64,000 nt of DNA from Naegleria gruberi. Taxonomy: Eukaryota. The notes beneath the pieces were generated by a model. The model did not search any database and had not been told where the DNA came from. It saw only the letters and a program-made list of their open reading frames with translations. Of this stretch, positions 2,284 to 63,149 are shown one piece after another. How positions within the stretch are numbered: position 1 is the first letter of the stretch; the number at the start of each line of letters is the position of its first letter. The translations under genes were made by a program, and so were the position numbers. Location: the NCBI GenBank assembly GCA_000004985.1, contig GG738856.1; one strand, given 5' to 3'.

Positions 2284-2841
2284 TTTTTTAAAGTTTGAAC
2301 TCGAAGGAAATTACTTCCGATTTCTTTCCTTTCATCACTTGTAAATGTGAATAGTACTAATAAAAATTGTAATTAAATAATATCATAGTATTCCTTGGCT
2401 TAAACTCATCATAGTGATAAGTCGTGAAAGAAGGGTTGAATTGGAATCCAATATAAGCGGACTATTACTCATACTCCTCAAACGGACAATAAGGATGCTC
2501 TATTATTCTACTGCAAGTAAGTCTTAGCCAGCAGCAATATTGAGGTGATGATCATTTGGTATTTTTTTCAGCAAGAAAAGAGCAGAACGTTATCGTGCGC
2601 ATCAAAGAAAAACAGAGTTTCAACTTTTTGATAGTGAGAAGCGATTCATCTTCTTGATTATCATTGCGTTTTTCTAATTTGTTAGGGTCGCATTGTGAGA
2701 CTTTGTGTGATTTTTATATATACAAAATTTAATATATATTATTATTATTTATTTAAATACATATTTTACGTAGTAGAATAGTGGAAATAATTATTATTAT
2801 TATTGGTAGCAGTAGGAATTGTATTATTAATTTATTAAAAC

Positions 2842-5800: not shown

Positions 5801-6377
5801 TTATAATGATGAAGTTTACTATCAAAAGCTCTTTATCAAGCTCAAAGATGAAATTACAACCTTTGAAGTACAAGACGTTTTCAATGCCTTACAAGCTTCT
5901 GTTAGTTCTGATTTCACAAGTATTCAAAATGTCAGAGATTTGGTTGGTAGTACAGAGACTGCTACACTTGTCCTTATGGCTTTCTTCAACATTGTTGCTG
6001 CTATTGCCATCATTTTGTGCTTCTTCATGTTGGCTGTTTCATTCACTGCTAACGTTAGAGATAACTCTTGGGAATTTGGTGTGTTGAGATCTATTGGTTT
6101 GTCTGTCAATGCACTCATTCGTGCCTATATTTATGAAGCTCTTTGCTTGGTCATTTCGGCCTTTATTTCTGGTACTGTGATTGGTTGTGTAATTGCCTTG
6201 ACATTAACAGCTCAGTTCAACTTGTTCTTGGAGATGCCGTTCCAATTCGATTTCCCATACTACCTCTTCTTCTCTATTCTTATCATGGCTCTCATTTGTG
6301 CCATTCTGGGTAGTTACTTGCCTGCTAGAAATTTGAGAAAGAAGGAAATTGCTCTCGTCATTCGTGGAGCTGAATAA
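2842..6377 (+). CDS. FtsX-like permease family (DUF214/MacB-like) membrane protein with two FtsX domains. ORFs 2842..3807 and 3816..6377 are joined by an apparent +/-1 frameshift near 3732-3815.
   Basis: N-terminal TM (FYSFLVGLITIAIVVFVVSILY) plus an extracellular region in ORF1. ORF2 has two FtsX 4-TM modules (GMLRALGLRQYSLIQVILAQS... and NSWEFGVLRSIGLSVNALIRAYIYEALCLV...PARNLRKKEIALVIRG). No GT...AG candidate lies between the two frames, so this is a frameshift rather than an intron. Confidence 0.75.
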
Positions 6378-14466: not shown

Positions 14467-14507
14467 TTTTTTCAAGTTCACCAAACTTTGCAAAAAGAAA
14501 ATTATAT

Positions 14508-14579
14508 GCTGACGGACGGGATCGAACCGGCGACCAATGGCTTATTAGACCAACGCTCTACCGACTGAGCTACGCCAGC
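14508..14579 (-). tRNA. tRNA-Ile (anticodon AAT)
   Basis: 72-nt cloverleaf: GCTGGCG acceptor, TAGCTCAGTCGGTAGAGC D-arm, anticodon loop CTAATAA, GGTTCGATCC T-arm, T-run terminator downstream. It lies 42 nt upstream of the Arp ATG on the same strand. Confidence 0.9.
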
Positions 14580-14769: not shown

Positions 14770-16203
14770 ATGTACAAACACCAACTCTACCTCATCAAGA
14801 AGTCAACAACAACACTTCATCACAACAAAACTCTCGGAACTCTCAGTAATCAAGTGAGAAATGTATCAAACTTTACAACACCACAACTTGTTAAACATTT
14901 AAAAAGACATCATCAACACAGAGGATCGATTGTATTTAATTATGATCAAATTGTGAGTGGAGAACCAAAATACAAACTCTCTCATTCATCAATGGAACCA
15001 CTCTTGGAATATATCTTGTCTAAGAATGGTGCGGATGGACATGTAAATCATCAAGCCTTGTTTTTGGAAATTTCACCAGTCTCTCAAAGTTTATTCGGAT
15101 GTTTTATTCATAATACTAATAGAGGACTTGCTCAGGGTAATGTAGATTTGTGGCATTATCCAAATGCTTCAGAATTTGTGAGTGATGGTTTAAAACAAAG
15201 TGAATATGCTGCTAGAAAGATGGCTTTGACAAATCAATTCTGGGGAGGTGGAAAAGGAATTATTCAAACCAATCCAGATTTGGATTATTCAAATTATGAA
15301 GTTAGAAGAACTGTCATGAACGAGTTTGGAAGTTTTGTGTCATCTTTGAGAGGTGTTTTCTATGCTCAGGAAGGTTTTGGAATTCAACCAAATGATATGG
15401 CTCACATCTTTGAAAAGACTCGTTTCACTACCAGTATTCCTAAAAAGTTTGGAGGTAATGGAAATATTTCTCCATCGTTTTCAAGCAAGATTGTAATTAA
15501 TACAATGGAATCTGCCTTGTCACATGTAAATTTGGGAAATTTGTCTGGTAAAATTGTTGCCATTCAAGGATTTAATAAGGAAACTGAAGGCATCATTTCG
15601 AGCCTCTTGAGAGAAAAACATTCCCTTAAAGTTATTCTCACAGAAACTGATCCACTCAAAATTAAGACTGTCAAGGGTTTGTTTGCTGAGGAAGTTAACG
15701 ATCAAAGATTGGATGTGAGATTGGTCTTTGAAGATCAAGATTCAATTCTCAATTTGGACGTAGACATTTTATATCCTTCATCTGGAACTATCTTTAATTC
15801 TTCCAACATTCCTCTCGTTAATGCAAAGATTATTTGTGGAGTTTCTCAATCTCAATTTGAAGATGCTTCTAATGAAAGACAATTGAGAGAAAATGGTGTC
15901 ATTCTCATTCCTTCTCTCCTAACCAAAACCTCAAACTTTTCAGCAGTGAATGAAATTTATGGTATCATTCCAAACAATGATCCAGAAATTACCAAAATGT
16001 TTTCCAAAGATTATGAATATTCCATTTACAATACTGTCAAGAAAGTTATCGAATTATCAGAGCAAAACAAAATCTCCACCCAAAATGCTGCTTTCGAATT
16101 GGCTGATAAGAAAATTAATGAACCCCATCCATTCATTCCACTCAGAGGTTCTCAAATCATTCACTCACTTGTTTCTGATGAATGGCATTTGCAATTACAA
16201 TAA
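14770..16203 (+). CDS. Glu/Leu/Phe/Val dehydrogenase family protein (divergent, with N-terminal extension)
   Basis: MALTNQFWGGGKGIIQTNPDLDYSNYEVRR matches the ELFV-dehydrogenase catalytic region (NALTGLPFGGGKGG...DP...E.RR). A Rossmann-like GKIVAIQGFN lies downstream. Confidence 0.6.
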   Translation: MYKHQLYLIKKSTTTLHHNKTLGTLSNQVRNVSNFTTPQLVKHLKRHHQHRGSIVFNYDQIVSGEPKYKLSHSSMEPLLEYILSKNGADGHVNHQALFLEISPVSQSLFGCFIHNTNRGLAQGNVDLWHYPNASEFVSDGLKQSEYAARKMALTNQFWGGGKGIIQTNPDLDYSNYEVRRTVMNEFGSFVSSLRGVFYAQEGFGIQPNDMAHIFEKTRFTTSIPKKFGGNGNISPSFSSKIVINTMESALSHVNLGNLSGKIVAIQGFNKETEGIISSLLREKHSLKVILTETDPLKIKTVKGLFAEEVNDQRLDVRLVFEDQDSILNLDVDILYPSSGTIFNSSNIPLVNAKIICGVSQSQFEDASNERQLRENGVILIPSLLTKTSNFSAVNEIYGIIPNNDPEITKMFSKDYEYSIYNTVKKVIELSEQNKISTQNAAFELADKKINEPHPFIPLRGSQIIHSLVSDEWHLQLQ

Positions 16204-18433: not shown

Positions 18434-19088
18434 NNNNNNNNNNNNNNNNNNNNNNNNNNNNNNNNNNNNNNNNNNNNNNNNNNNNNNNNNNNNNNNNNNN
18501 NNNNNNNNNNNNNNNNNNNNNNNNNNNNNNNNNNNNNNNNNNNNNNNNNNNNNNNNNNNNNNNNNNNNNNNNNNNNNNNNNNNNNNNNNNNNNNNNNNNN
18601 NNNNNNNNNNNNNNNNNNNNNNNNNNNNNNNNNNNNNNNNNNNNNNNNNNNNNNNNNNNNNNNNNNNNNNNNNNNNNNNNNNNNNNNNNNNNNNNNNNNN
18701 NNNNNNNNNNNNNNNNNNNNNNNNNNNNNNNNNNNNNNNNNNNNNNNNNNNNNNNNNNNNNNNNNNNNNNNNNNNNNNNNNNNNNNNNNNNNNNNNNNNN
18801 NNNNNNNNNNNNNNNNNNNNNNNNNNNNNNNNNNNNNNNNNNNNNNNNNNNNNNNNNNNNNNNNNNNNNNNNNNNNNNNNNNNNNNNNNNNNNNNNNNNN
18901 NNNNNNNNNNNNNNNNNNNNNNNNNNNNNNNNNNNNNNNNNNNNNNNNNNNNNNNNNNNNNNNNNNNNNNNNNNNNNNNNNNNNNNNNNNNNNNNNNNNN
19001 NNNNNNNNNNNNNNNNNNNNNNNNNNNNNNNNNNNNNNNNNNNNNNNNNNNNNNNNNNNNNNNNNNNNNNNNNNNNNNNNNNNNNNNN
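18434..19088. other. assembly gap (655 N)
   Basis: Run of n. Confidence 1.
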
Positions 19089-19148: not shown

Positions 19149-20486
19149 TTAACAAAAGTAGAAATTTATCAAATCTGGAAGTTTTGAAAGCAATTCCAAT
19201 GAATCATCATTCACTGGATTGTTACAAATATCCAATTGAGTTAATTGATGCATTTGAGCAAGTGATTCAGCTCCATCATTTCCAACTCTATTGTCATTTA
19301 TCAAAAGTTCAGTCAATTTGGACATTCCAATAATTAAACCCGTTCCAATATCACCAATTTCATTCTCTCCAATGTCAAGATATAATAATTGGTCCAATTT
19401 ACTTATTGACTTCATTCCCTCATCGCCAATTTCATTGGTATTGATATCTAATTTTGTGAGTTGACTCAATTTGCTTAATGACTTGGCACCTTCTCCGCTA
19501 ATTCGATTATGAGAAATGTCAAGTTCAGTCAATTGTTCCATTATTCCAATATAGTGAGCTCCTTCGTTGCCAAGTACATTGTATCGAATATTAAGTTTAG
19601 TCAATTGATACATTTCACTAATAGCTTTGGATCCATAAGAGCCAATTTCATTATGACTAATTTCTAAGGTGGTCAATTGCTTCATCTCACTAATCAACCT
19701 TGCTCCTTCATCTCCAATTTTACAAGAGCTGATATTAAGGCAAATTAAATTATTGATGTGAAAAAGTGATTTAATGCCCTCAACTCCAATGTGATTTTCA
19801 GAAATTGAAAGATTGGTCAATTTGGTCATCCCACCAATATAACTGGCACCTTCATTGCCTATAAAATTGTTACTGATGTCGAGATCAGTTAATTGAGTCA
19901 TTTCACATATTGATTTGGTTCCTCCTGCATTGATATTGTTTCTGCTAATATTTAGTTTGGTCAATTGAGTCATTTCTCTAATAATTTTTGAACCTCTTTC
20001 AAGTAATTGATTATTGCTGATATCAAGGTCGGCCAAATGAGCGAGATTGCTTATCATATTGGCTCCCTCTGCATTTACCAACCATGAACTAACATCAAGT
20101 TTAGTTAATTTTCCACACATTCGAATAAAATTGCACAACTTTACAGTATCGCTAACTAATGTACCTATTCCAATTTTCATACTCGAAAAACATTCCAAGA
20201 ATTGACTCTTTCTCATCAAGTCAAACATTTCATCATTCCAATGATCCTTGTCAATGTAGTACTGAAATTCAATTGACAGTTTGGCATGCCGTTTAATACC
20301 TGCCATCCACTGCTTGGAAATTAGTACACAACTAGAGAGTATAAATTTCCAATCTCCGTTCAAATAGTTAATTATTTCATAGCAAATGTCATCAGAGAAT
20401 ATTTGATGGCTATCGGAAGGAATTTCAATCTCATAAAACATCTGATGTTTATCAAAAGCAAAATCTTCGGCTGGTAATTGATACAT
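19149..20486 (-). CDS. F-box/LRR (RNI-type) protein
   Basis: N-terminal F-box-like IFSDDICYEIINYL...LISKQW followed by about 12 LRRs with the GxEGAK motif. ATG at 20486. Confidence 0.8.
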   Translation of the reverse strand: MYQLPAEDFAFDKHQMFYEIEIPSDSHQIFSDDICYEIINYLNGDWKFILSSCVLISKQWMAGIKRHAKLSIEFQYYIDKDHWNDEMFDLMRKSQFLECFSSMKIGIGTLVSDTVKLCNFIRMCGKLTKLDVSSWLVNAEGANMISNLAHLADLDISNNQLLERGSKIIREMTQLTKLNISRNNINAGGTKSICEMTQLTDLDISNNFIGNEGASYIGGMTKLTNLSISENHIGVEGIKSLFHINNLICLNISSCKIGDEGARLISEMKQLTTLEISHNEIGSYGSKAISEMYQLTKLNIRYNVLGNEGAHYIGIMEQLTELDISHNRISGEGAKSLSKLSQLTKLDINTNEIGDEGMKSISKLDQLLYLDIGENEIGDIGTGLIIGMSKLTELLINDNRVGNDGAESLAQMHQLTQLDICNNPVNDDSLELLSKLPDLINFYFC

Positions 20487-20530: not shown

Positions 20531-21738
20531 CTAGTATTTATTTGAAAAGTAAGAAGAATTGGTGACATCACTTGGTTTTGGTCTATCTTCAGGATTCTTC
20601 TTTAACATTTGCATGACCATATCTACCAATTCAATGGAACAATTTGGAGAGCACTTGATAATATTTTCTCTGACAAGATTTTCTACATCCTTTTCGCTGG
20701 ACATGAGATTGAGATTGAGTTGACGTCTTTGGTGTTCCTTCAAATAGAGTTGAGTAATGCAAGTTTGTCTATCACCAGTCAGGCATTGATAGGCAGTTAC
20801 ACCAAGAGCGAAAATGTCTGTTTGGAAACAATTCTTACCTTGAACAATTGCTTCCCAACTCATGTAGATTGGTGTTCCAGCAAAGCCCATTTGAGTACTG
20901 AGTAGAGTATTTGCATCTCCTGTGACCAATGCTTGACTCAAATTAATATCACTACTGTCTGAAACTCTGGAAATGTTTGCATTATTACTAGTTGCTCCAC
21001 TAGTGGAATTTCTACCTTTCTTTGCCAAACCAAAATCACCCAATACAATATGAATCTGAGAACGGTGATAGTCAAAACTCTTGATAAATATGTTGGAAGG
21101 CTTAATATCTCTGTGAATCATATTGTACTCAGTGTTCATATAATCCAAAGCACTGCAAATTTGATAAATTAAGTGTGAGACGAGTGTTTCTGATAAAACG
21201 GTTTGGCCCAAGTAGCACTGATTGTTCATAAATTGTTCAAAATCTCCCAACTCGTAATAATCCATCTCCATACAAAGCATGTGTTGATTTGCATCAATAA
21301 AAACATCATTCACTCGTACAATATGTGGGTGTACCATTCTTAAAAGGTGTGTGGCTTCTCTGAGAGTTTGGTTAAGTTCATTCAAATCAGAGAAACGAAT
21401 AAGTTTGATGGCTTTCCATTGGAAGTTTTGCTTGGTATCTTGACCCTTGAAAACCAAACCAAATGAACCCTCACCAATTTTCATCAAATTAACAAATCTA
21501 TCAATGAGCATGGATTCACTTCCATTTAGTCTATTTTGAGAAGCATTACTGCTTAATTGAAGATTATTACCTGAAGAATCGTCCATCATACTCTTAGTTA
21601 GAGTCATGGCAGTTGAAACTTGAGAAATATTGAGGAAAGTTCTGATATTACCAGATCTATTAGAATATGGATCACTGCCACTCACAGGAGTTCCAACAAG
21701 ATTCAACTCAAAATTTTTATCCACAGAAAGAGTAAGAN
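20531..21738 (-). CDS. Ser/Thr protein kinase (5' end lost in the gap)
   Basis: GEGSFGLVFKG, AIK, HRDIKPSNIFI, GDFGLAKK and a SWEA-type activation segment. The N-terminus runs into the N gap. Confidence 0.85.
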
Positions 21739-21787
21739 NNNNNNNNNNNNNNNNNNNNNNNNNNNNNNNNNNNNNNNNNNNNNNNNN
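21739..21787. other. assembly gap (49 N)
   Basis: Run of n. Confidence 1.
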
Positions 21788-28975: not shown

Positions 28976-29049
28976 GCCTTCCTAGCTCAGTTGGCAGTAG
29001 CGCTGTCCTAGTAAGACAGAGGTCTTGGGTTCGATTCCCAAGGGAGGCA
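28976..29049 (+). tRNA. tRNA-Thr (anticodon AGT), copy 1
   Basis: Acceptor GCCTTCC/GGGAGGC, TAGCTCAGTTGG D-loop, anticodon loop CTAGTAA, GGTTCGATTCC T-arm, TTCTTTT terminator. Identical to the copy at 33310. Confidence 0.9.
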
Positions 29050-29203: not shown

Positions 29204-31375
29204 TTAGTTTATTTCAACTAAATTTTCTAGAATCCAACAAACAACGCTTTCTGCCAAAACTTTGTCCATATATTTGTTCTTTTCAAGCACTCCTTCCACT
29301 AGTTCGTTGAATTTTGGGTTATTCGTGATTATTCGACGAACAATGTTGTCTATTTCACGTTTGGTGATTGAGAACATTTCATGCTCATTACTATCTAAAC
29401 AAAGCACTTTCTCAAGTAATTTAATTAGGTCAGAATGTTGCCATTGTAAAAGGTTTGATTTGTCCAAAAGAGTGTTATCAACATGGAAGTATCCCTTTGA
29501 TCTAATAAAAGAAGTTGATTTGGGAATTTTAAAGGTGTGTTTCTTTTGCGGAGATTCAATTGTTAAGATACGATTATTATCCATAGATATTCTCATATTG
29601 TCTATGTATTTCTCATTGTTCGGTTCGAGAATTGGAACGGTGTGGCTTTCCACATATCTGGTAGTACTGTCAAAATTAATACCAAGGTTCACAAAAGTTT
29701 TCCCTGTACCTTGAAACTTCTGTTGATACTGTCTATCTTCTATTTGTTGCAAAGTTATTGGTGCAGTACTATACAGTTTTATCTCGACTACCCATACAAA
29801 GGTCTCTTCCTCAATGACAAGATCAATAGTTCCAGTATTGATAGGGTGTTCGCAGGAAACTTTATACCCCATAAGAGACATTAGCTTTATAAAGGCATGT
29901 ATGATAATAAGCCTCAAACTTGACAATTCTCCAAGTGTGTGCATAGGGCAAACATGTAAAAAATGATTTTAGCTGATCTGCAAAACCATCACTGTCATTT
30001 GATCTAATATATTCTTGACAAACCCTGGCATGTTCTAACATCAGGTGTTCTTTGTTTTTTTCTACAAGGGCTTCAATAAAGGTAGACTTGACTTCCATGT
30101 TTGGGAAATCTAAATAATATCCATTTCCTTTTTTGCAAATAGTAAGAAGTCCAAGTTGTACTAGAAATGGTCCTGGAATAAATGTATTGGATGAAATAGA
30201 TACTGGTTCAAACCTGTCAAAGTTAGTTTCTGATATGGATGTATCTTTCCAACTTGCAATATCTACGCATTCTGCCCATGGCTTCTCACCAATGTATGTT
30301 GGTCTTCCATGCCTTATCCAGTAGGGTTTAAATTGGGTGCTTTGCTCCTTCAATAATTCGTTGATGTCAAATGGATTGAGTACTGTTGCATCAGAGCTAA
30401 ACGAAAAGCAATATCCATTATAGTATTCCACAATATCATCAATTAATTTTGATACAGATTGACCCTTTTTACAAGCTAGTGCTTCCAGATAATCACTAAA
30501 GTAGGTTTTCAAATCCTCTCTTGTATATCCATAAAGTGTGGAGGTTAGTGGCAGACTGGATACATCTTTTAAATGGTTTGCAGCTGAGAAGTGTAAGGTC
30601 TTGGTAAATTTGGCTACACCGGTGACAATGAATTTTGAAACGTTTCTATTATTCTTTACCTCATTGAAAAATTGTGACAACAGTTCAGAATTGTTTTTGA
30701 TTTGAAGCAATTCCTCCTCAGTGTGATCTTTCTCAATATACTTTACAATTGGAATGTCATACTCATCAACTAACACTGCAATTTTGCATCCTTGATTTGT
30801 TAGAGTGTTTACAACACGATTAAATTCCAATAACACAGTTTTCAGCTTGAAAGATTCGTTCATCTGTTCCACAGTTATTCCATATTTGTTGCAAACATCT
30901 TCAATGCCAAGAATTAAGTGTACAACAACGTCCCCAGCATTTTGAGCAAAGTTAAACCTAAATACAGCATGCTTGGTCCACTCTCTTTCTCTGTTCGTAC
31001 AAATCTTCAATCCCTCAAACAAATGTTTGGATCCCTCAAGAACTAGAGAGTAAATAATTGTAATTAAAACCTACTATGTAACATTATTTCCAAGATTAAT
31101 GACTTTCCAAACTTTCTAGGTCTTGCAATGAATATAGAGGAGGAAAATTCCAACATATCATGAATAACATCTGTTTTATCAACATATACCATCTTTTTGT
31201 TAATGATATCTAAAAAATTCTCAGAAGATACAGGAATCTTGTTTACATCAATGGTCGGTGCTGATGATTTCATCTCCTGATCGGTGGCTGGGGTTTCTTC
31301 AAGCTTTCGTCTTTTAGGTTGCACAATAACTCGCCTAACCTTCCCTGACCGAACGGGACCTTTTTGCTCAAGCAT
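29204..31375 (-). CDS. prokaryote-type predicted AAA-ATPase (PF09820-like N-terminal domain) fused to a PD-(D/E)XK nuclease domain (PF08011/DUF1703-like). Three ORFs are joined by one 32-nt intron (31043..31074) and one apparent 1-nt frameshift near 29900.
   Basis: YVDKTDVIHDML, FIARPRKFGKSLILEIML (Walker A) and LFEGLKICTNREREWTKHAVFRFNFA. The mid-domain has AVLVDEYDIPI. C-terminal YYH(A/T)FIKLMSLMGYKVSCEHPINTGTIDLVIEEETFVWVVEIK is the DUF1703 core. A basic extension SGKVRRVIVQPKRRKLEE lies at the N-terminus. The intron gtaggtttta...ctctag restores frame exactly. Confidence 0.7.
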
Positions 31376-31574: not shown

Positions 31575-32579
31575 ATGAGCAAACGAATCAGACAAGATTT
31601 TGAAAATCATCAATTCATTAATTCGGAGGAAATATTCACTAATGATAATAATAATAATACGGAAGAGAAAGTAAAAAAGGTTGTGAAATTCGAACAAGAA
31701 ATATTTTCAGATGACATTTGTTTTGAAATAATTTCCATGATTGATAATTCGTGGTTTATTTTAAATAATTGTACTTTAATTTCAAAACAATTCTTTAATG
31801 TGATCAAGGAACGTTCAAAACTTTTTATTCAATTTAATAAGAAATTAACAAAGAAACAATTTCAATTATTTTTGAAAAGTCAATTTATGAATTGTATTGT
31901 TAATGTTACATTTTCTAGTTGGTTGCTTCACTCTTTGGAAGAAGCCAAATTCATAAGTGAAATGAAACAGTTGATATCACTTAATATTTCTGGCAATGAA
32001 TTTGGTGATGAAGAAGCCAAATTGATAAGTGAAATGAAACAATTAACATCACTTGATATTTCTGGCAATCGAATTGGTGATGAAGGAGCCAAATATCTAA
32101 GTGAAATGAAACAGTTGATATCACTCAATATTGGTGAAAATGAAATTGGTGATGAAGGAGCCAAATTGATAAGTGAAACCAGACAATTAGCATCACTTAA
32201 TATTTGTTTCACTCAAATTGGTATAGAAGAAGCCAAATTGATAAGTGAAATGAGACAATTAACATCACTTAATATTTCTGACAATCGAATTTGTGTAGAA
32301 GGAGCCAAATGGATAAGTGAAATGAGACAATTAACATCACTTGATATTTCTGGTAATCGAATTGGTGATGAAGGAGCCAAAACCATAAGTGAAATGAAAC
32401 AATTAACATCACTTGATATTTCTTACAATCGAATTGGTGATGAAGGAGCCAAATTCATAAGTGAAATGAAACAGTTGATATCACTCAATATTCGTGGCAA
32501 TCGAATTGGTGATGAAGGAGTCAAATATATAAGTGAAATGAAACAATTAACATCACTTACATATAAGGGATTAAATTGA
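31575..32579 (+). CDS. F-box/LRR (RNI-type) protein; the C-terminal end is possibly truncated or frameshifted
   Basis: IFSDDICFEIISMI...LISKQFF F-box-like, then about 9 repeats of ISEMKQLTSLDISGNRIGDEGAK. Confidence 0.75.
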   Translation: MSKRIRQDFENHQFINSEEIFTNDNNNNTEEKVKKVVKFEQEIFSDDICFEIISMIDNSWFILNNCTLISKQFFNVIKERSKLFIQFNKKLTKKQFQLFLKSQFMNCIVNVTFSSWLLHSLEEAKFISEMKQLISLNISGNEFGDEEAKLISEMKQLTSLDISGNRIGDEGAKYLSEMKQLISLNIGENEIGDEGAKLISETRQLASLNICFTQIGIEEAKLISEMRQLTSLNISDNRICVEGAKWISEMRQLTSLDISGNRIGDEGAKTISEMKQLTSLDISYNRIGDEGAKFISEMKQLISLNIRGNRIGDEGVKYISEMKQLTSLTYKGLN

Positions 32580-33309: not shown

Positions 33310-33383
33310 GCCTTCCTAGCTCAGTTGGCAGTAGCGCTGTCCTAGTAAGACAGAGGTCTTGGGTTCGATTCCCAAGGGAGGCA
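33310..33383 (+). tRNA. tRNA-Thr (anticodon AGT), copy 2
   Basis: Identical 74-nt sequence to 28976..29049, including 10 nt of 5' flank. Confidence 0.9.
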
Positions 33384-33440: not shown

Positions 33441-35072
33441 TCAATTATTTGAGTTTTGATAAAAACGTTCTCTAAGTGCTTTGAGAATGGCTTCAGCTCC
33501 TTCATGTAGAATTTCTTTAGAAATTTCGTCTCCATTTTCCCACTTACATTTATCCAAACCAAAAAAGGAAACATTAATCAATTCACAATACTCAACTGGA
33601 ATATTCTCCAAACATGGATTTTCAGCAATATTTAACATTCTTAAATATTTGAGTTTTGACAATTCTTTTGGAAGGTATTTGACATTATTTCTATAAAGAG
33701 AAATTGAAGCCAATTCACTAATTTCGGATAATTCCATTGGAAGGGTTTCGATTTGATTTTTATCAAACCAAAGAGCTCCCATTTGTTTACAATGACTCAA
33801 TTCAGGCGGAACTTGTGTTAACTTATTATTCATGATGAATAATTCATTCAAATTAAGTAAGGAGCAAATTTCTATTGGAAATTCAGATATTTGATTATTG
33901 TTCAAGTTGAGTCGAGTAAGTTTTTTCAAAATTGATAATCCATTGACATGTGTCAGTAAGTTATTGTCAAGATTTAAACTGGATATGAATGTAAAATCCA
34001 AAGTTTGAGTCAATTCTTTTGGAATTTCCAATAATTGTAAACTTTTCAATTCAATAGTGGAACCTCCTTCATTCAAAATCTTTTCCACTTTCATTTCCAT
34101 CCAATTTCCGTCATTATTCAGACTATTATCGTAAAGATTCTCCCATTGATTATTATCTTCCTGATATCGTTCTCCTTTAAATGCTCTTCCACGATCGTGA
34201 GAGCCACGACTTTCCCAAAACCCTTTTTCATTTTCCTTTGAAAATTTGAGTCCACATAAGAATTTACATCCTTTCCAGCCAAATAGTTGAGGAATCATGA
34301 GACGAATGTAACCATGCTCTTTGGAAATGAATTCTTCATTATATTTGAGAGCTAGAAATGAATCTGGTGTGTCCACGTCCTCTCTGTGGACATTCACAAC
34401 ATAACCATCAATTCCTGTTTGAATGAGAAATTTCCAGTCTGGATCTGGTTTTAGATAATTGATAATGGATTGAAAGGAAAGACCTTCCATGTGCATGTCC
34501 ATAACACTCCATGTGGTTACACAATGTAAATCAATTGTATATTTGGATAATGGGATAGATTCAAGTAATTCTGTGAGTGTGATTGTCTTGATCGGATGAT
34601 CATCTCCAAGGATTATTTCAAGTTCCCATGAGTTAATATCCATTTCTGGATGATACCCCAAATCGAGGACAGGCCACTTTTTAACTATTTTTTGGCCTTT
34701 TGGAAGTTTACTATTATCTTCTTCATCGAAAATTTGATAGTTTCCAGTGGTTTTAAAAGTACTTTGTCTTATTCTTTCAAGCTTTTCAATGTGAGATTCG
34801 TCTAATTTTAATTGTCTTTTTGCTTCGTTTACTGTTTTGATTTCCGAAATATTCTTTTGATCAGTGATTTTCTTTGTTACTTGATTCTTGGGTGACGATA
34901 TTTCTCTAGTTCTGCAAATATAAAAAGCCACCATTGATCCAAATATTATTAATGATGAAAATAATGGATTAGATTCAACTGGCAATATTGCAATGGTAAC
35001 GAAAACAAGACAGGCAAAAAATAGAAAATCAAGAGCTTGTGTGTTCATTGTATTTTTTTGATAAAAGTTCAT
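33441..35072 (-). CDS. membrane-anchored protein combining a sulfite-oxidase-family molybdopterin (Moco) domain (YedY/MsrP-like) with C-terminal leucine-rich repeats
   Basis: N-terminal TM ALDFLFFACLVFVTIAILPV. Moco-domain motifs IDLHCVTTWS, GIDGYVVNV and FLALKYNEEFISKEHGYIRLMIPQLFGWKGCKFLCGLKFS. After that come about 9 classical LRRs (LNLDNNLLTHVNGLSILKKLTRLNLNNNQISEFP...). ATG at 35072. Confidence 0.75.
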   Translation of the reverse strand: MNFYQKNTMNTQALDFLFFACLVFVTIAILPVESNPLFSSLIIFGSMVAFYICRTREISSPKNQVTKKITDQKNISEIKTVNEAKRQLKLDESHIEKLERIRQSTFKTTGNYQIFDEEDNSKLPKGQKIVKKWPVLDLGYHPEMDINSWELEIILGDDHPIKTITLTELLESIPLSKYTIDLHCVTTWSVMDMHMEGLSFQSIINYLKPDPDWKFLIQTGIDGYVVNVHREDVDTPDSFLALKYNEEFISKEHGYIRLMIPQLFGWKGCKFLCGLKFSKENEKGFWESRGSHDRGRAFKGERYQEDNNQWENLYDNSLNNDGNWMEMKVEKILNEGGSTIELKSLQLLEIPKELTQTLDFTFISSLNLDNNLLTHVNGLSILKKLTRLNLNNNQISEFPIEICSLLNLNELFIMNNKLTQVPPELSHCKQMGALWFDKNQIETLPMELSEISELASISLYRNNVKYLPKELSKLKYLRMLNIAENPCLENIPVEYCELINVSFFGLDKCKWENGDEISKEILHEGAEAILKALRERFYQNSNN

Positions 35073-35081
35073 CAATATTTA

Positions 35082-38000
35082 TTACATCATCAATACAGCA
35101 ACCAAGGCCAAAATGAGCATCAAAGCGTTAACAGCAACATTAGAACTTGCATTAACTTTGGTACTCTTCACTGGAGTTACAGTTGAAGGTTTTGGAGTTG
35201 TTGAAGAGCCTGGTGTAACAGTGGTTTGAGAAGTAATGATATAAGTACCAGTGCTTGAAACAGAAGCAGTGATAGTACCGTCGTTGTTCGTAGTTAAGGT
35301 GCATCCAGAGGCAGTTTCATACGTGTTAGTAACAGTATTGAGTACCTTACATGTGTTGACAGTTTCCATCAAAGTTCTTGATTTCTTTGTGAGTTCAAAG
35401 ACCAAATCAGCAATAGAAGAAGAATTAGAAACAGTGACAGCAGTTCCATCAACCAACTTGAAATCAATAGCCTTAGTAATAGTATTATCAACACCAGTAA
35501 CATCAATAACTTTAGCCATAACATTGACAGTCTTGAGAGAAGCAATTTGACTCAATTGAGCAAACTTGGAAGATAACTTGATCTTATTGTTACCAAGAAT
35601 CTTTTCAGAGAGGGAGTTCAAGGTAGCAATGTTAACCTTACGAGTAAGAGTTGTTACACCACCAGCATTAACAATGGTAGATGGCAAGTCAGCAATAGTG
35701 TCCTTAACAGACAAAGTTGCCAAATTGGTATAAACAGTGTTAATGTTTGCAAGGTCAACCTTACTGAAAACTCTCTTTCTTTGTTGACCTTTTTGAATAA
35801 CTTCAAGGAATTTGTCAGCAGATTTCTTTACATTGTCAATCATTTCACTTCCAAGTTCGATGCCGTTAGTGTTAACATTTCCTGTAGTATTTGCGAGACT
35901 GTCAACAACCTTGGCTGTAGTACTATCAGCAACCATTCCAGAAGAAACAGAAGTACTGAATGATGAAGCAAAAGACAGACCATTTTCAGCAGAGCTCTTG
36001 GAAACAGAAATACTATCAGTTTTGGCTTGTTGGTCTAGGAAGGCATCTGCAATAGCAGAAGCAGCTTGCTTGATAGAATCAATTTGTGAAGAGTTCAACT
36101 TGTTAATATCAACACTACCAATAACAGACATGGCAGATGAAGCAGCAGACAATGTGACAGTACCCTTAGAGGTGGCCATTGAAGACAAGGCAGAAACAGA
36201 TTCTTCAGCAGATGGCTTGGTAATAGTAACATCAAAAGTAGCATATGAAGAAGCACCCAAAAAGTCGTACACAACAGCCTTAACAGTCAAAATATTACCA
36301 GATGTTGGTGCTGGGAGTGAGATACTTGCGGATGGTTCTTCAGTTCTGTCAGTAAGAGGGTTCCACTTGTTACCCTTGTTATCGTAGAACATGAATTGAT
36401 AAGTCAATGGTGTTTGAGGATCAGACCAACCATTACCACACTTGATATCGAAAATATCGCTCAAAGCTTTACCAGTGATTGGATAGACATCGAATTGACC
36501 TTGAGTTGGTGGAGAGTTGACAGTGAATGTAACCTTAGCAGAACCTTCCTTGACACCATCAGTGACAGCCAAAGAAACAGTATATGAGTCACCTGGAGAA
36601 AGCAAGCTGGATGGAATCTTCAAATAGCTTGAAGTGGTGGAGGTATTAGTGTTGAGTTCAAAGTTTTCAGCAGACCAAGTAAATGATGGGCTTGATAATT
36701 GAACACCCCATGTAGTATAGGTCAAATACAAGTCCTTAGATGGATCAACAACAGTCAAGTCAACATTTGAAGTAATTGAAACTTTGAGAAGAGTATCCTT
36801 TGCTTGCTCAAGGAGAGTAACAAACAAGTAACGAGTAGCACCTCTTGATCCCTTAGTTACAGTTGCAGTGAATTGGTATGCTCCAGCAGTGAATTGAGTG
36901 CTTGTGAATGAAGAAACATATCCAGGTTGAATGGTACAGTCTTGGCCATTAGTCAAATCATAACAAGTGATGGATACATTTTGGGCATCATTGGTATTAC
37001 TTGGATCAACAACCTTAATATTAAATGAAATTGGATCTTGATTAGATTGAATAACATTGTCAATGGAATAGGAGAGGATCAATGGTTGAGCAATAGCAGT
37101 TACCTTGATTGAGGTTGAGGATGATTCTGCTCCATTAGCTGTGGCAGTGACTGTAAAGTAGTAATCACCTTCTTGATTAATTTCAGTAAATCCCTTACCA
37201 AGGACCAGCATTCCATTCTTTGTTTTTGGTGTAACAATGGATGCAGATTGAGAAGCATCTAAAGTATAACTGTATTGAACTTGACCATTTCCGTTGTAAC
37301 AGGATGGGAATTTGATAATTGGATTAATAGTTGAAACAGAACCAATCATAAACTTGCTTTCAGCACCTTGCTTAATGAACACAGCTGGAACAGCATTGGC
37401 AATAACTGTGAAAGAGAAGGACTTGGTATCCGATTTACCGAAACTACTGGTGACAGTAACAGAAACAATGTAAGTACCAGCAGACAAACCGAGCTCGTTC
37501 AATTTGATTCTCAATCCACCTCGAGTTTCACTCTTGATAGCAGTTGAGAGCTTATCTTCATCTGAACTTGATGGTCCCGAAGCAACAGACCAGGAGAAAG
37601 TTAATGGACGACGATCCAAAGAAACTGAACCATAAGCATTCAAGAACAAATCATCGCATGTTGAAACAACGCTCTTGTCACCAATCAAGGAAACAGTTGG
37701 TGAAGCAGCAATGAATTCACCACTTTGAACTTCTGCATTAGTAGCTTCCTTACTACCTGGATATTTCAATGGTCTAAGAACATCTGAGGTAGTAACAGCA
37801 GCATTAGGTCCCAAAATTACTTCCAAAGTGCTCTTGTCAGTATTGAAAACACATTGAGATCTATCACCAAGCTTTAAAACATCTTGGAAGATTTGATCAC
37901 ATGGAATTGGTCTCTTGAGGGTGGAGTAAACAGTTGCAACAAGTCTGTCACCGTTGGCATTGAACTTGAGAGAGGATGTATCAAATTTATAGTCACAATT

Positions 38001-39864
38001 ATCACCAGCATATTGGTTGAGACAAACACCTGGAGCACATTTAGCAGCTGGGTCAACATTTGGACTATTACAAGTGCAAGAGCCATCATAGGTACAAGTT
38101 CCTCTACCATTGCAAGTGGATGGGTTACAAGAAATTGAACAATTTGCACCAACAAATCCACCAATACACTTTTCACAATATTCACCAGCATAATTTCCAT
38201 CACATTTACATTTCAAACCTTGACATTTACCCTTGCCACCACAAGTACCAGCATCTGTACACACTGGTTCTTTACAATCATCTCCCTTAAATGCAGGACT
38301 ACAACTAGAACAATTACGAGAACCAGTCCAAGCAGAATCACATTGACAAGTATCTGGACCAACACACTTACCGTGTTGAGAACAAGCATATTGACTATTT
38401 CTATCAACACCATGGCATGAGAATGATTGACAAGATGATCCTTCGAAACCAGCCAAGCATTTACAAGCATTTGGACCTTGGCATGAACCCTTACCATTAC
38501 ATACTGATCTATCAGTAGCTGGAGTATTGTAACATATTGGAATTTCACAATTTGCACCAGTGTATCCAGCAATACACTTCAAACAGTAGGTGCTAGGATC
38601 AAAATTACCTCTACATTGACAAACGTCGACATCAGTACATTTACCATTGAAGGAACAACCACCAGCTTGTTCAGTCTTACCATTACAAGTTTTGATATCG
38701 CATTCAATTCCTGAATAACCAGCTTTACAATTACAAGTATTTGGAGCAACACATTTACCTTTGCCACCACAAACTTGAGCCTCATCTTGAGGTTTACCGA
38801 AACAAGTTGNNNNNNNNNNNNNNNNNNNNNNNNNNNNNNNNNNNNNNNNNNNNNNNNNNCAGTTCCATTCACACAGCACCATTCTTACATTGAATATTAG
38901 CACATGGATCAACTGGACCTGGTGGAGGATTTGGATTGCTTCCATTATTATTAGTATTATTATTACCTGGATTTGGATTAGGTGTTGGACTACTTCCATT
39001 ATTATTATTATTATTAGGATTTGGATTTGGGTTGCTTCCATTGTTGTTGGTGTTATTATTACCTGGATTTGGATTAACAACTTGATCACAATGAGGACCA
39101 GTGAAACCTTGTTGACATTCACATGTTCCATTCACACAAGTACCATTACCACAGTGAATATTAGCACATGGATCAACTGGACCTGGTGGAGGATTTGGAT
39201 TGCTTCCATTGTTATTAGTATTATTATTACCTGGATTAGGATTAGGTGTTGGACTACTTTCATTATTGTTATTAGTATTATTATTAGGATTTGGATTTGG
39301 ATTAGGGTTAGGATTTGGGTTGCTTCCATTGTTATTGGTATTATTATTACCTGGATTTGGATTAACAACTTGATCACAATGAGGACCAGTGAAACCTTGT
39401 TGGCATTCACATGTTCCATTCACACAAGTACCATTACCACATTGAACATTGGCACATGGATCAACTGGACCTGGTGGAGGATTTGGATTACTGTTGTTAT
39501 TATTTCCAAGAACTACTTCACAATGAACACCATCAAAACCTTGATTACATTCGCACATACCAGAGGTCATGTTACAAACACCATGACCGCAATCAGAATT
39601 ATTAGAGCACAAAGGTGCACAGAGAGTATCATTATAATAGTAGCTAAGACTTCCATCGCAGCCACATGTGCCATTAAGACACACCAAATTTACACCATTC
39701 ATAGTTTGATTGAGTACATTATCATAGAAAGGATAATTACACTCAGAATCATTTTGGCACCCTTTCACTACAAAGCCATTAAGCAACAGCAGTGTAGAAA
39801 ACAGGGACACCAAAGCAAATACAAAAGTTAGCCTTGTTGTCTGCATATTTTTTCTTGAGGTCAT
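35082..39864 (-). CDS. giant secreted/type-I membrane protein: signal peptide, N/P-rich linker plus EGF-like module x3, tenascin-type EGF array, long Thr/Ser-rich beta-rich (Ig/TIG-like?) region, C-terminal TM. Interrupted by a 50-N gap.
   Basis: Signal peptide MQTTRLTFVFALVSLFSTLLLLNG. Repeated ...DPCANIQCGNGTCVNGTCECQQGFTGPHCDQV. A further EGF array (CNGKGSCQGPNACKCLAGFEGSSC...). C-terminal TM VAVNALMLILALVAVLMM. The frame changes across the gap. Confidence 0.75.
38810..38859. other. assembly gap (50 N)
   Basis: Run of n. Confidence 1.
38880..39520. repeat. three tandem copies of a coding repeat of about 265-277 nt (NPNP-rich linker plus EGF module)
   Basis: cacatggatcaactggacctggtggaggatttggatt recurs at 38903, 39168 and 39445. 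Confidence 0.8.
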
Positions 39865-44718: not shown

Positions 44719-44789
44719 TGCGTCGACCGGGAATTGAACCCGGGTCACGGCGATGGCAACGCCGTATTCTACCACTAAACCATCGACGC
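44719..44789 (-). tRNA. tRNA-Gly (anticodon GCC)
   Basis: GCGTCGATGGTTTAGTGGTAGAAT..., anticodon stem CGGCG/CGCCG with loop TTGCCAT, T-arm CCGGGTTCAATTCCCGG. Confidence 0.9.
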
Positions 44790-52814: not shown

Positions 52815-52887
52815 GAGACTGTAGCTCAGATGGGAGAGTATTCGTTAACCCAACGAATGGTCTTAGGTTCAAATCCTAACTGTTTCT
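52815..52887 (+). tRNA. tRNA-like gene with a Val(AAC)-like body but an aberrant anticodon loop (TAACCCA, A at position 33)
   Basis: Acceptor GAGACTG/CTGTTTC (one U-U mismatch), TAGCTCAGATGGGAGAGT D-arm, anticodon stem TTCGT/ACGAA, T-arm TTAGGTTCAAATCCTAA, T6 terminator. The loop lacks U33. Confidence 0.55.
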
Positions 52888-53268
52888 CTTTTTTAGGATT
52901 TCTTAATTTCGAAAGCAAGAAACCATACCACTACAAATCCATTAACACAATTTACAAATATACCAGCAACCCTTTCCAACCATACGTAAAGGGTGCACCA
53001 CATTACAAAGATATCAAATGTAGAATTTATTATTGTCATTCAATTCAAAATTGAAATTGACACATCGCTCTCTATCAATAAAATTCTAACGTAGCTCTTT
53101 CAATAAACGTTGCTATAATTAATTTATTTATTTACAATTTTCATTCCAGTTTTTCTTTTAGTTTTATTGAATGTGTATCAATTTCAATTTTGAATTGAAC
53201 GAGACATTAATAACGCAACGTTCTTTGCTTTTTTAAAGTATGATTAAGGGATTAATCCTTGGATATAA

Positions 53269-53340
53269 GCTGGCGTAGCTCAGCCGGTAGAGCGTTGGTC
53301 TAATAAGCCATTGGTCGCCGGTTCAATCCCGTCCGTCAGC
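53269..53340 (+). tRNA. tRNA-Ile (anticodon AAT), copy 2
   Basis: Differs from 14508..14579 by 2 nt (D-loop AGTCGG vs AGCCGG; T-loop GATCC vs AATCC). The 3' flank ATAATTTT(G/C) is shared. Confidence 0.9.
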
Positions 53341-53357
53341 AGATAATTTTGCCTTTC

Positions 53358-58474: not shown

Positions 58475-58546
58475 GGGACCATGGTCTAGTGGTATGATTC
58501 TCGCTTTGGGTGCGAGAGGCCGTGGGTTCGATTCCCACTGGTCCCC
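58475..58546 (+). tRNA. tRNA-Pro (anticodon TGG)
   Basis: GGGACCATGGTCTAGTGGTATGATTCTCGCTTTGGGTGCGAGAGGCCGTGGGTTCGATTCCCACTGGTCCCC, with anticodon loop TTTGGGT. Confidence 0.9.
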
Positions 58547-61121: not shown

Positions 61122-63149
61122 TTACCACTTCTTTTTGGGAACTCTCTTTTCAATGACATTTCTGAAAAATGTTTTTTGAGATCTGAGCAATAATTTCAAA
61201 TTTAACAAGACTGAAATGGCTCCAGATTTGGAAATATTAGATCCATCCACAGTAAATGATTGTAATTCTTGCATGAATTGACTAGTTGCAATGTATCCAA
61301 TTCCTTCATCAGTTATTTGATTGATTTTATAACATCTGAGACTTGTCAAAACGCATCCAATTTGTGAAATTAATTTCAATGAAGTATCGGTGAGAGATGT
61401 GTTTTCTGAAAGTGATAATGCAATTAAATTGACTGGTTGGGAAGAAGCCAAATATTGAATTCCTTCATCTGTTATTTGATTATTAGATAAATGTAAGATT
61501 TTCAATTTGGTAGTCAATGCAGATGATTCGAATCCTTTCATTCCCTTATCTCCAATTTTGTTATTGCTAACATTCAATGATGTCAAATTAACTAAATACG
61601 GACTAGTTAAAATTTCAATAAAATCCTGATCATTCAAATTGCAAAATGAAATATTCAACCGAGTCAAATTTAAAAATGCTGGATTTCTTGTAATTGAGGT
61701 GATTCTTCCATTTAGGTCCATATTATTTTCTTGAGAATACCAAGTAAAAAGTTCTCCTAAACCTAATTGTTTCAAATTGTGAAGGTATGGACTCTCAATG
61801 ACATCCTTTATCAATTCGAAATTACAGGAGAAACAAATACTTGTTAAATTTGACATGGTTGGTTGCGGAATTAATTTAGAGCTCATATCTGGCAATCTAA
61901 CGTACAATCTGTTCCTCTTGGTGAGATTGGTTAACTTGAGGAATGGGCTTTCGAATAGAATATTTAAATTCAATGAGATCCATTCAGCAGTTGGATACAC
62001 CTCCAAATAGGTCAGAGATGCAAAAGTTGGACAATTAGCAATATATCCCAAACATTCATCGTCCAAATTGTTATGACACAGATCCAGTACTTTCAAATTA
62101 GTTAAATAACAAGGCTTCTCAGTGAGAATTTTGAGTTTCTCTGAACCTATTCCAGAACATCCCACATTTAAAATTTCCAAATTACCCAAATATGGACTTG
62201 CAAATATTTGCGCATTTACTCCATTATCATATAAATTCAATATTCTCAATTTTGAAAATACTGGACTATTTGCAATGTGTAAAGATCCTTCCACAGAGAT
62301 ACAATTAAATTGCAAGTTTAAATTTGTTAAATTTGACAAATGTGTGCTCGTGGATAAATGTCTAAGGCCTTCATCTCCGATATAGTTATGCTGCAGATTG
62401 AGTGTTGTTAAATTCCTCATTTCAATATTATTCGAAAGCTCTATTGCGAATGCATTTCCAATATCACAATATCTCAAATTCAAACTTTTCAAATTTTTTA
62501 AATAGGGGCTTTTTACCAATTTCTGATAAGATTCGTCATTTGTTCTATACTCCATCATGAACGCACGTCTAGGACGATTACTAGATGCATTTGTGGAATT
62601 GTACAAATTGAGTTCTGTTAAATTTTTGAAATTTTCACTTTCTGTTAAAACTTCAAAACTTTCCTTTCCCAAATTATTAAATCTCAAATTCAAACTTTTC
62701 AAATTCTTGATAAATTCACTCTTTGAAAGAGCATTAATTCCTTCAAAATTAATTCCATTACTTCTCAAATTCAAATGTTGCAATTGACCAAAATCGGCAC
62801 AATTTGCAAGTAATTTCACTCCCTTATTTCCAATATAATTGAACGAAACATTCAAACTAGTAATATTCCTTCTCCAATTCACTTCAAAATCATCTTCCAT
62901 TGTCTCTGTGAATTCTTCATCATTGGCATTCGAATTGAAAAATAAATTCAACTTGTGTGGATGAATTTTGTGAATAGAAAAATCAAGATTCAATGCAAAT
63001 CTACTTGCTGCTTGTCTCCAATCCTTGGAAACAAGTGAAAATCGTTTGATAATTTGCAAATGATCAATAAATGTCATGATGTGAAAAATCATGTCCAGTG
63101 GAAGAATCACTGTTTGGTCAACAATATTCGGAGGAGGATTCATTTGCAT
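61122..63149 (-). CDS. F-box/LRR protein with classical RNI-like (NLRC-type) repeats
   Basis: N-terminal F-box-like LPLDMIFHIMTFIDHLQIIKRFSLVSKDW. About 18 LRRs (NLRSNGINFEGINAL...NLRFNNLGKESF...). Confidence 0.8.
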   Translation of the reverse strand: MQMNPPPNIVDQTVILPLDMIFHIMTFIDHLQIIKRFSLVSKDWRQAASRFALNLDFSIHKIHPHKLNLFFNSNANDEEFTETMEDDFEVNWRRNITSLNVSFNYIGNKGVKLLANCADFGQLQHLNLRSNGINFEGINALSKSEFIKNLKSLNLRFNNLGKESFEVLTESENFKNLTELNLYNSTNASSNRPRRAFMMEYRTNDESYQKLVKSPYLKNLKSLNLRYCDIGNAFAIELSNNIEMRNLTTLNLQHNYIGDEGLRHLSTSTHLSNLTNLNLQFNCISVEGSLHIANSPVFSKLRILNLYDNGVNAQIFASPYLGNLEILNVGCSGIGSEKLKILTEKPCYLTNLKVLDLCHNNLDDECLGYIANCPTFASLTYLEVYPTAEWISLNLNILFESPFLKLTNLTKRNRLYVRLPDMSSKLIPQPTMSNLTSICFSCNFELIKDVIESPYLHNLKQLGLGELFTWYSQENNMDLNGRITSITRNPAFLNLTRLNISFCNLNDQDFIEILTSPYLVNLTSLNVSNNKIGDKGMKGFESSALTTKLKILHLSNNQITDEGIQYLASSQPVNLIALSLSENTSLTDTSLKLISQIGCVLTSLRCYKINQITDEGIGYIATSQFMQELQSFTVDGSNISKSGAISVLLNLKLLLRSQKTFFRNVIEKRVPKKKW

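Follow-up and report, generated by a model that had tools for sequence, protein, structure and literature searches.

In a stretch of 64,000 nucleotides of Naegleria gruberi DNA (contig GG738856.1 of assembly GCA_000004985.1; hereafter the window), an open reading frame (ORF) on the minus strand encodes a protein that combines a molybdenum-cofactor (Moco) domain of the sulfite oxidase (SO) family with leucine-rich repeats (LRRs). An initial inspection of the letters alone (the sequence-only reading) had proposed that both halves lie in one contiguous frame at 33441-35072, and an uninterrupted ORF of 543 codons is indeed found there. It contains the motifs quoted at the time, i.e., IDLHCVTTWS (aa 180-189), GIDGYVVNV (aa 220-228) and HGYIRLMIPQLFGWKGCKFLCGLKFS (aa 253-278; aa, amino acid position). 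The kind of enzyme, a member of the SO family, is known; new is the architecture. Its proposed anatomy, in which we place high confidence, comprises the following features, derived from the sequence, Kyte-Doolittle (KD) hydropathy and an AlphaFold2 (AF2) model with its per-residue confidence score, pLDDT:

33441..35072, minus strand: complete coding sequence of the Moco-LRR protein, 543 codons, TGA stop codon at 33441-33443, no intron required (ORF list and sequence).
34977..35033, minus strand: hydrophobic helix 1 (aa 14-32, LDFLFFACLVFVTIAILPV), predicted membrane anchor (KD and AF2).
34908..34967, minus strand: hydrophobic helix 2 (aa ~36-55, PLFSSLIIFGSMVAFYIC), followed by the basic stretch RTREISSPKNQVTKK (KD and AF2).
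34713..34907, minus strand: partly helical tether between anchor and catalytic domain (aa 56-120), pLDDT 38-64 (low confidence), of variable length across orthologues.
34158..34712, minus strand: SUOX-fold molybdenum-cofactor domain (aa ~121-305), from LPxGQ...KKWPVLDLG through RGSHDRGR...ERY.
34521..34523, minus strand: codon of Cys184, the predicted Mo ligand, in the HCVTTWS motif, aligned with the Cys of 'RCVEAWS' in YedY.
34068..34157, minus strand: variable inter-domain linker (aa 306-335), pLDDT <50 at aa 307-314, with in-frame length differences between orthologues.
33498..34067, minus strand: eight LRRs (aa 336-525) of the SHOC2/RSU1/LRRC8 type (Pfam, PDB sequence and Foldseek matches, AF2).
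33444..33497, minus strand: C-terminal cap helix (aa 526-543, AEAILKALRERFYQNSNN), AF2 helix 526-542 with pLDDT >90; an EG..AIL..L motif is present in all orthologues.

In the ORF list of the window, the frame is entered as 33441-35075 (minus strand; 544 aa) starting at TTG, and the eukaryotic ATG at 35072 leads to the 543 aa used here. There is no frame break and no assembly gap within 33441-35072. The GC content at third codon positions is 0.26, compared to 0.21-0.38 in neighbouring genes, and codon usage likewise matches the neighbours, whose ORFs carry RGS, RCC1, REJ/EGF and many ribonuclease-inhibitor (RI)-type LRR domains and, thus, are eukaryotic. As a control, we used the lineage-specific neighbouring ORF 14770-16203, which matches a ‘predicted protein’ of N. 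gruberi at 100% identity and its counterparts in N. lovaniensis and Willaertia magna at 53-54%. The Moco-LRR protein and its N. lovaniensis orthologue share 53% identity, the same value as the control gene pair (53%). Based on the composition, the absence of an internal gap and a divergence from N. lovaniensis equal to that of the control gene, we conclude that this is a genuine, i.e., native and intact, single-exon gene of N. gruberi. Chance is far too weak to explain a 1.6-kb ORF with the domain scores given below in a genome of 33% GC.

Among 5.8 billion clustered proteins searched, there was no N. gruberi entry for the Moco-LRR protein, and the gene therefore appears to be absent from the N. 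gruberi reference annotation and proteome. Exact-sequence look-ups with this ORF and with two ORFs nearby matched no record either. The missing database protein, despite an N. gruberi neighbourhood, could also mean that no functional fused gene exists and that the locus is an ORF in decay or without expression, a contaminant, or two genes joined by the assembly. The upstream side of the gene fits this suspicion: at 35073-35084 of the window, just 9 nt (TAAATATTG) lie between the TAA of the upstream REJ/EGF-domain ORF (1,349 codons; 35082-39131, minus strand; stop codon 35082-35084) and the ATG, a spacing unusually tight for two eukaryotic genes on the same strand. The N. lovaniensis gene has a different upstream neighbour, at a distance of ~300 nt. 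Further, assembly gaps do occur in the window (runs of N at 18434-19088, 21738-21787, 25221 and 38810-38859, one of them inside the upstream REJ/EGF ORF). Nevertheless, the coding sequence itself has neither gap nor frame break, its codon composition is native and its flanking genes eukaryotic, the catalytic and LRR consensus residues are intact, the N. lovaniensis orthologue is as similar as in the control pair, and the architecture is colinear in four independent full-length sequences, one of them an assembled transcript. We consider an artefact or a decaying gene extremely unlikely.

Homologues were examined next to the gene itself. The best match among the clustered proteins is a ‘hypothetical protein’ of N. 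lovaniensis (XP_044541684, P0001; 53% identity, 99% coverage), which aligns with the N. gruberi protein from end to end (53-57% identity) and is encoded by a single exon of 1,722 nt (L002 8001-9722). In the amoebozoan Soliformovum irregulare, a Trinity transcript from EukProt (P0002) has a complete ORF with both halves on one mRNA. Two metagenomic contigs contain single-exon fusion ORFs, one (P0003) on 32.8 kb together with anoctamin, cNMP-binding and MAPEG genes, the other (P0255) on 7.1 kb together with a split protein-kinase gene. Two additional proteins (P0146, P0152) are partial metagenomic fragments crossing the junction of the two domains. The order anchor, tether, Moco domain, LRRs and cap is kept in the four other full-length sequences at 38-57% identity, with invariant residues in both halves. 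Since this colinear architecture recurs in four full-length homologues, including an assembled transcript, comparison of the sequences indicates that the Moco and LRR halves are one gene. That they share one exon agrees with the contiguous ORF, the single-exon homologues and the Soliformovum transcript.

In a profile search with the full-length protein against 1.84 billion representatives, run without a word index, only four clusters spanned both domains, three of them full-length; the remaining matches among the top 150 were giant LRR proteins. Scanning metagenomes revealed 56 related loci, 54 of which encode the Moco domain only, the fusions being one eukaryote-like contig and a near-identical copy of it. 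In the species genomes of GTDB, no fusion was detected, and 38/38 related loci were Moco-only (hosts include Nitrospirales, Verrucomicrobia, Desulfurococcales and Sulfolobales). None of the stand-alone homologues carries LRRs. A prokaryotic origin of the fusion was rejected given these Moco-only counts in GTDB (38/38) and the metagenomes (54/56). Carriage of the fusion between amoebae by giant viruses was rejected as well, as a scan of IMG/VR revealed no relative, and there was no structural match in BFVD at E-values up to 0.001. Willaertia magna, whose proteome is part of the database searched, had no match. By tblastn, the N. lovaniensis locus shows no synteny with the N. gruberi window. None of the solved structures matched in PDB spans both domains, full-text literature searches yielded no paper describing the combination, and LRRs appear nowhere in the text of a comparative-genomics survey tabulating new molybdoprotein domain fusions. 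The architecture, of which the sequence-only reading was aware of no description, is rare and apparently without a published description, yet it is not unique: it has already been deposited, unnamed, for N. lovaniensis, in the amoebozoan transcriptome and from a few environmental eukaryotes.

The identity of the N-terminal half was assessed using profile and structure comparisons. Pfam detects Oxidored_molyb (PF00174) at aa 142-287 with an E-value of 1e-20 and 74.5 bits (gathering cut-off 24), and the match covers profile positions 4-169 of 169. In the AF2 model of the protein (51-sequence alignment, mean pLDDT 84), aa ~125-305 form a compact α/β domain with pLDDT >90. It has the three-dimensional SUOX fold of the SO family. 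When the domain was used for a profile search in PDB, YedY was the best match (E 3e-16) with the Cys motifs aligned, followed by SO, sulfite dehydrogenase (SDH) and nitrate reductase (NR; 1e-13 to 1e-11) and by PruR (9e-6). Sequence identity to YedY, SO, SDH, NR and PruR is only 16-21%. YedY is also the first SO-family match in Foldseek. Cys102 of YedY, the Cys of the RCVEAWS motif, coordinates Mo (PMC11194511), and the aligned Cys184 is invariant in 46/46 family sequences. Since the N. gruberi domain keeps 26/26 columns invariant across 46 family members, this Cys among them, it looks, on sequence grounds, capable of binding the cofactor and not degenerate. Pfam finds neither Mo-co_dimer (PF03404; at E up to 0.1) nor Cyt-b5 in the Moco-LRR protein, so an SO-family Moco domain that has the Mo-ligand Cys but no dimerisation or heme domain, as claimed from the letters, is borne out by the Pfam scan and the YedY alignment.

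The Cys motif HCVTTWS is of the CVxxWS type, like RCVEAWS of YedY, and not CAGNRR as in SO and NR. In the chicken SO structure, CAGNRR reportedly contributes one substrate-binding arginine. A classical SO, a sulfite dehydrogenase and an assimilatory NR were rejected as identities, as both the PF03404 dimerisation domain and a CAGNRR-type motif are missing. A sulfite-oxidising detoxifier comparable to plant SO, using O2 or a soluble acceptor and having the LRRs for localisation only, has one feature in its favour, namely that plant SO likewise lacks a heme domain. However, a dimerisation domain is a feature of all characterised SO and SDH enzymes, HCVTTWS resembles the YedY motif instead of the one said to supply the substrate arginine, and identity to SO is only 16%. 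We regard this function as very unlikely.

In contrast, the earlier label ‘MsrP-like’ is correct as far as the YedY-type Cys motif and the Moco-only composition are concerned. MsrP (YedY), a protein-methionine-sulfoxide reductase, likewise consists of a Moco domain only, with a CVxxWS motif and without dimerisation or heme domain. On the other hand, its identity to the Naegleria domain is only 18-19%, and an MsrP orthologue was rejected, as the NCBIfam equivalog for MsrP (NF003767) gives 32 bits against a cut-off of 207. MsrP is also Tat-exported (twin-arginine translocation), periplasmic, found in Gram-negative bacteria, paired with the heme-b membrane partner MsrQ and without LRRs, whereas the Naegleria protein, with a predicted cytosolic location, starts with a hydrophobic anchor that lacks a twin-arginine motif. 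An MsrQ-like heme partner was not evident, though no search was aimed at MsrQ-like genes.

The closest relatives of the Moco domain are stand-alone proteins of ~210 aa with 36-51% identity over 88-97% of the domain (E-values down to 2e-73). Their source labels are ‘sulfite oxidase-like oxidoreductase’ or ‘molybdopterin-dependent oxidoreductase’, and their hosts are Woesearchaeota, Nanoarchaeia, Desulfurococcales, Nitrospirales, Verrucomicrobia, Rhizobium and Bosea. This group has been described as single-subunit cytoplasmic SO-family enzymes, no member having a known substrate (PMC7759655). The Naegleria domain shares with them the LPPGQ...PVLDLG, HCVTTWS, DGY.TN and HG..RL..P.L..WK..KF motifs and all 26 invariant residues. 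Unlike the Moco-LRR protein, which is eukaryotic, 543 aa long and adds anchor, tether and eight LRRs, they are soluble, prokaryotic and single-domain (~200-250 aa). Judging from these similarities, the Moco domain is better described as a member of this orphan cytoplasmic clade of the SO family than as MsrP-like.

In a neighbour-joining (NJ) tree of 123 Moco domains (80 bootstraps), a crude method with arbitrary rooting, the Moco domains of five full-length fusion proteins are monophyletic in 72/80 bootstraps. They nest among stand-alone proteins, three stand-alone metagenomic proteins being their sisters, within a clade that contains many DPANN archaeal sequences. This monophyly suggests one fusion event as the simplest reading, after which the fusion would either have been inherited since ancient times and lost in some lineages, or have been passed from one amoeba to another.

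Two observations concern the relatives themselves. P0121 (253 aa; L011 51-812 / L012 60-821), the closest stand-alone relative in the NJ tree, has a low-complexity N-terminus starting with MGQLES, similar to a signal for N-myristoylation (Gly2, Ser6). Its gene adjoins a gene for an animal-type heme peroxidase. By these features, P0121 may be eukaryotic and represent a lipid-anchored form of the domain that stands alone. The nearest prokaryotic homologues (45-49% identity) belong to Woesearchaeota, Nanoarchaeia and a DPANN-like 797-kb contig (L007-L009 4001-4633; L010 5001-5642). In each of L007-L009, the Moco gene follows 4 nt after the end of a 175-aa protein that matches nothing in Pfam. DPANN archaea are generally viewed as having small genomes and limited biosynthetic capacity.

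The C-terminal half begins after the linker, which in N. gruberi has a 7-aa insertion relative to N. lovaniensis. Pfam assigns LRR_4, LRR_8 and LRR_14 to aa ~344-500, with 41.6 bits for LRR_4 (cut-off 27) and a borderline 26.9 bits for LRR_8 (cut-off 27). In the AF2 model, a solenoid with eight evenly spaced β-strands (at 339, 365, 387, 410, 433, 456, 479 and 503; pLDDT >90) is formed. The LRR domain that had been noticed from the letters is, thus, confirmed, but the supposed nine or so repeats are eight plus the cap helix. PDB matches by sequence and Foldseek are SHOC2 (6.6e-37), RSU1, LRRC8 and Leptospira LRR proteins; LRRC40-like proteins match as well. The repeats belong to the same class of ~23 residues as in SHOC2, RSU1, LRRC40 and LRRC8, though the Naegleria domain has only eight of them and is fused to an enzyme domain. 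Three other genes in the window, at 19149-20486 (minus strand), 31575-32579 (plus strand) and 61122-63149 (minus strand), encode RI-type LRRs (LRR_6, ‘ISEMKQLTSLDISGNRIGDEGAK’ units). Because their class differs from that fused to the Moco domain, the fusion LRRs were not copied from these neighbours.

Six LRR residues (R387, E410, W435, D437, S458 and R478) are invariant across six sequences, even though the orthologues are only 38-57% identical overall. They occupy non-consensus ‘x’ positions in successive LxxLxLxxN strands, probably on the concave side. In LRRs of the SHOC2/RSU1/LRRC8 type, protein partners bind the concave face. As variable strand positions line this face in LRR proteins, the invariant stripe points to one conserved ligand.

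The similarity to SHOC2 and RSU1, both signalling scaffolds, may also be read in another way. The protein could be a redox or ligand sensor-scaffold instead of an enzyme, its SUOX-fold domain sensing via Moco or another pterin and the resulting state setting the partners of the LRRs at the membrane. It would then work in a manner comparable to PruR, which regulates DcpA in bacteria, or to SHOC2, which assembles MRAS and PP1C. The lack of an electron-transfer module of its own fits such a role, and PruR sets a precedent for a non-catalytic use of the fold, as its SUOX-fold domain works with a signalling partner. However, PruR is a periplasmic pterin-binding protein in which the Mo-ligand Cys is replaced by Trp and the cleft is truncated (PMC11194511). 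The Naegleria domain, in contrast, keeps the Cys and a full-length fold, and none of the 26 residues invariant in the presumed enzymatic clade is missing. A sensor is, in our view, unlikely, and we prefer a cofactor-binding enzyme.

Next, the N-terminus was considered. Helix 1 reaches a KD peak of 2.54 (19-mer) and is modelled by AF2 as a helix at 2-29; helix 2 has a KD peak of 1.62 and an AF2 helix at 36-58. A hydrophobic N-terminal helix is present in 4/4 full-length orthologues (P0001, P0002, P0003, P0255). Accordingly, the anchor proposed from the letters does exist, but the single helix proposed with it applies only to the other orthologues (P0002, P0003, P0255): the proteins of N. gruberi and N. 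lovaniensis have two hydrophobic helices separated by a loop of 4-6 residues. In the single-helix orthologues, KKK or KPKK follows immediately, which by the positive-inside rule would put most of the protein into the cytosol, with the N-terminus lying outside. In both Naegleria species, RTR...KK follows helix 2, and in N. gruberi five basic residues lie within the next 15 positions. The two Naegleria helices are a probable membrane hairpin, which would lead to the same cytosolic orientation. By analogy, the LRR class, which is that of cytosolic SHOC2, RSU1 and LRRC8, would count for this orientation, and so would the description of the stand-alone relatives as cytoplasmic (PMC7759655).

Taken together, the anatomy suggests how the protein might work, though the mechanism is tentative and we doubt it more than we trust it. 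The N-terminal anchor would hold the protein on an intracellular membrane, as a hairpin in Naegleria and as a single signal-anchor helix elsewhere, and the remainder would face the cytosol. There, the compact SUOX-fold domain, which would descend from prokaryotic single-domain cytoplasmic ‘sulfite oxidase-like oxidoreductases’ of ~210 aa, would be loaded with the molybdenum cofactor and bind it through Cys184. With a CVxxWS motif, and without the CAGNRR arginine motif and the dimerisation domain, its chemistry would be oxygen-atom-transfer reduction of S-oxide or N-oxide type (compare YedY/MsrP and mARC) and most likely not sulfite oxidation. Since the protein lacks its own heme, flavin or Fe-S module, electrons would have to be delivered by separate carriers, presumably membrane-bound. 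The eight-repeat LRR domain would dock a conserved protein partner, either a client as substrate of the reduction or a regulator, for instance a small GTPase. In outline, the sequence-only interpretation is largely right, and the coupling of redox or repair catalysis to a scaffold that it suggested is a hypothesis.

For the electron supply, mARC would be the closest working analogy, with cytochrome b5 and b5 reductase. Anchored N-terminally in the outer membrane, it faces the cytosol and receives electrons via CYB5B and NB5R3 (PMC10637980). Like the protein proposed here, it is an anchored eukaryotic Mo enzyme with Moco as its sole redox cofactor and separate electron suppliers. However, mARC has a MOSC-domain fold and not PF00174, and it has no LRRs, so the resemblance is organisational and not one of homology. 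Anatomy and mechanism combined, i.e., a cytosol-facing, membrane-tethered Mo reductase whose LRRs dock a conserved partner or substrate, form a reading that we can nearly, but not quite, put on a par with all others taken together.

Several findings weigh against this reading. The pTM of the AF2 model is 0.52, which leaves the position of the Moco domain relative to the LRRs undefined. Helix 2 is marginally hydrophobic (KD 1.62) and falls below threshold in N. lovaniensis; if it does not span the membrane, the predicted Naegleria topology reverses, making the hairpin the least secure step of the anatomy. As no substrate is known for the stand-alone clade (PMC7759655), the proposed chemistry is an extrapolation from a sequence motif. 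No redox partner is conserved in the gene neighbourhoods of the stand-alone homologues inspected (Rhizobium, one Woesearchaeote, the DPANN-like 797-kb contig and one possibly eukaryotic contig), and literature searches on Moco biosynthesis in Naegleria gave nothing usable. Transcript support is confined to the Soliformovum homologue. Further, the 9-nt spacing leaves the promoter and the 5′ end of the gene unclear: the 5′ end of the transcript may overlap the upstream gene, both genes may be co-transcribed, or a downstream ATG may be used. Met9 as an alternative start would still precede the anchor.

Some features of the surroundings are reported for completeness. A tRNA-Thr(AGT) gene at 33310-33383 (plus strand) lies 57 nt past the stop codon of the Moco-LRR gene and is convergent with it. 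It is one of seven tRNA genes in the window (the others at 28976-29049, 14507-14579, 53269-53341, 44719-44789, 52815-52888 and 58475-58546), a set including two copies of tRNA-Thr(AGT) and two of tRNA-Ile(AAT). The ORF 3816-6377 (plus strand) encodes the C-terminal domain of an FtsX-like permease (E 3.5e-29), and the ORF 29862-31022 (minus strand) a ‘Predicted AAA-ATPase’ domain (PF09820, E 2e-14). Such domains are more typical of prokaryotes, and a horizontal acquisition of both by N. gruberi is possible. At the N. lovaniensis locus, a 2OG-Fe(II) (2-oxoglutarate- and iron-dependent) oxygenase gene (PF13640) is located immediately downstream of the fusion gene (L002 9813-11537), and such a gene is also found at most 2 kb away on metagenomic contigs (L003 4434-5264, L014 ~2588-3532). 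These oxygenases have only the domain in common (33% identity over 122 aa), and there is no such gene in the N. gruberi window. This neighbour could be a coincidence or a loose functional link.

Reviews list five eukaryotic molybdenum enzymes, namely SO, NR, xanthine oxidoreductase (XOR), aldehyde oxidase (AO) and mARC (PMC10637980, PMC10574614). The Moco-LRR family would be a further type beyond these canonical five. In its most specific form, free-living amoebae would have a sixth, so far unrecognised type of eukaryotic Mo enzyme, a prokaryote-derived SUOX-fold reductase on the cytosolic face of a membrane, whose LRRs select clients (e.g., for the repair of oxidised methionine) or a GTPase regulator. 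This we consider rather unlikely as it stands, but if true, it would amount to a targeted Mo-dependent protein-redox system without counterpart among SO, NR, XOR, AO and mARC. Practical consequences will stay limited as long as expression, cofactor loading and a substrate have yet to be demonstrated. The apparent gap in the N. gruberi reference annotation is flagged here, and the patchy spread of the fusion across Heterolobosea, an amoebozoan transcriptome and unidentified eukaryotes of soil and water bears on gene transfer among amoebae. For the orphan cytoplasmic branch of the SO family, the LRR fusion partner is one of few functional clues; it suggests that the enzymes of this branch may act on proteins or be controlled by them.

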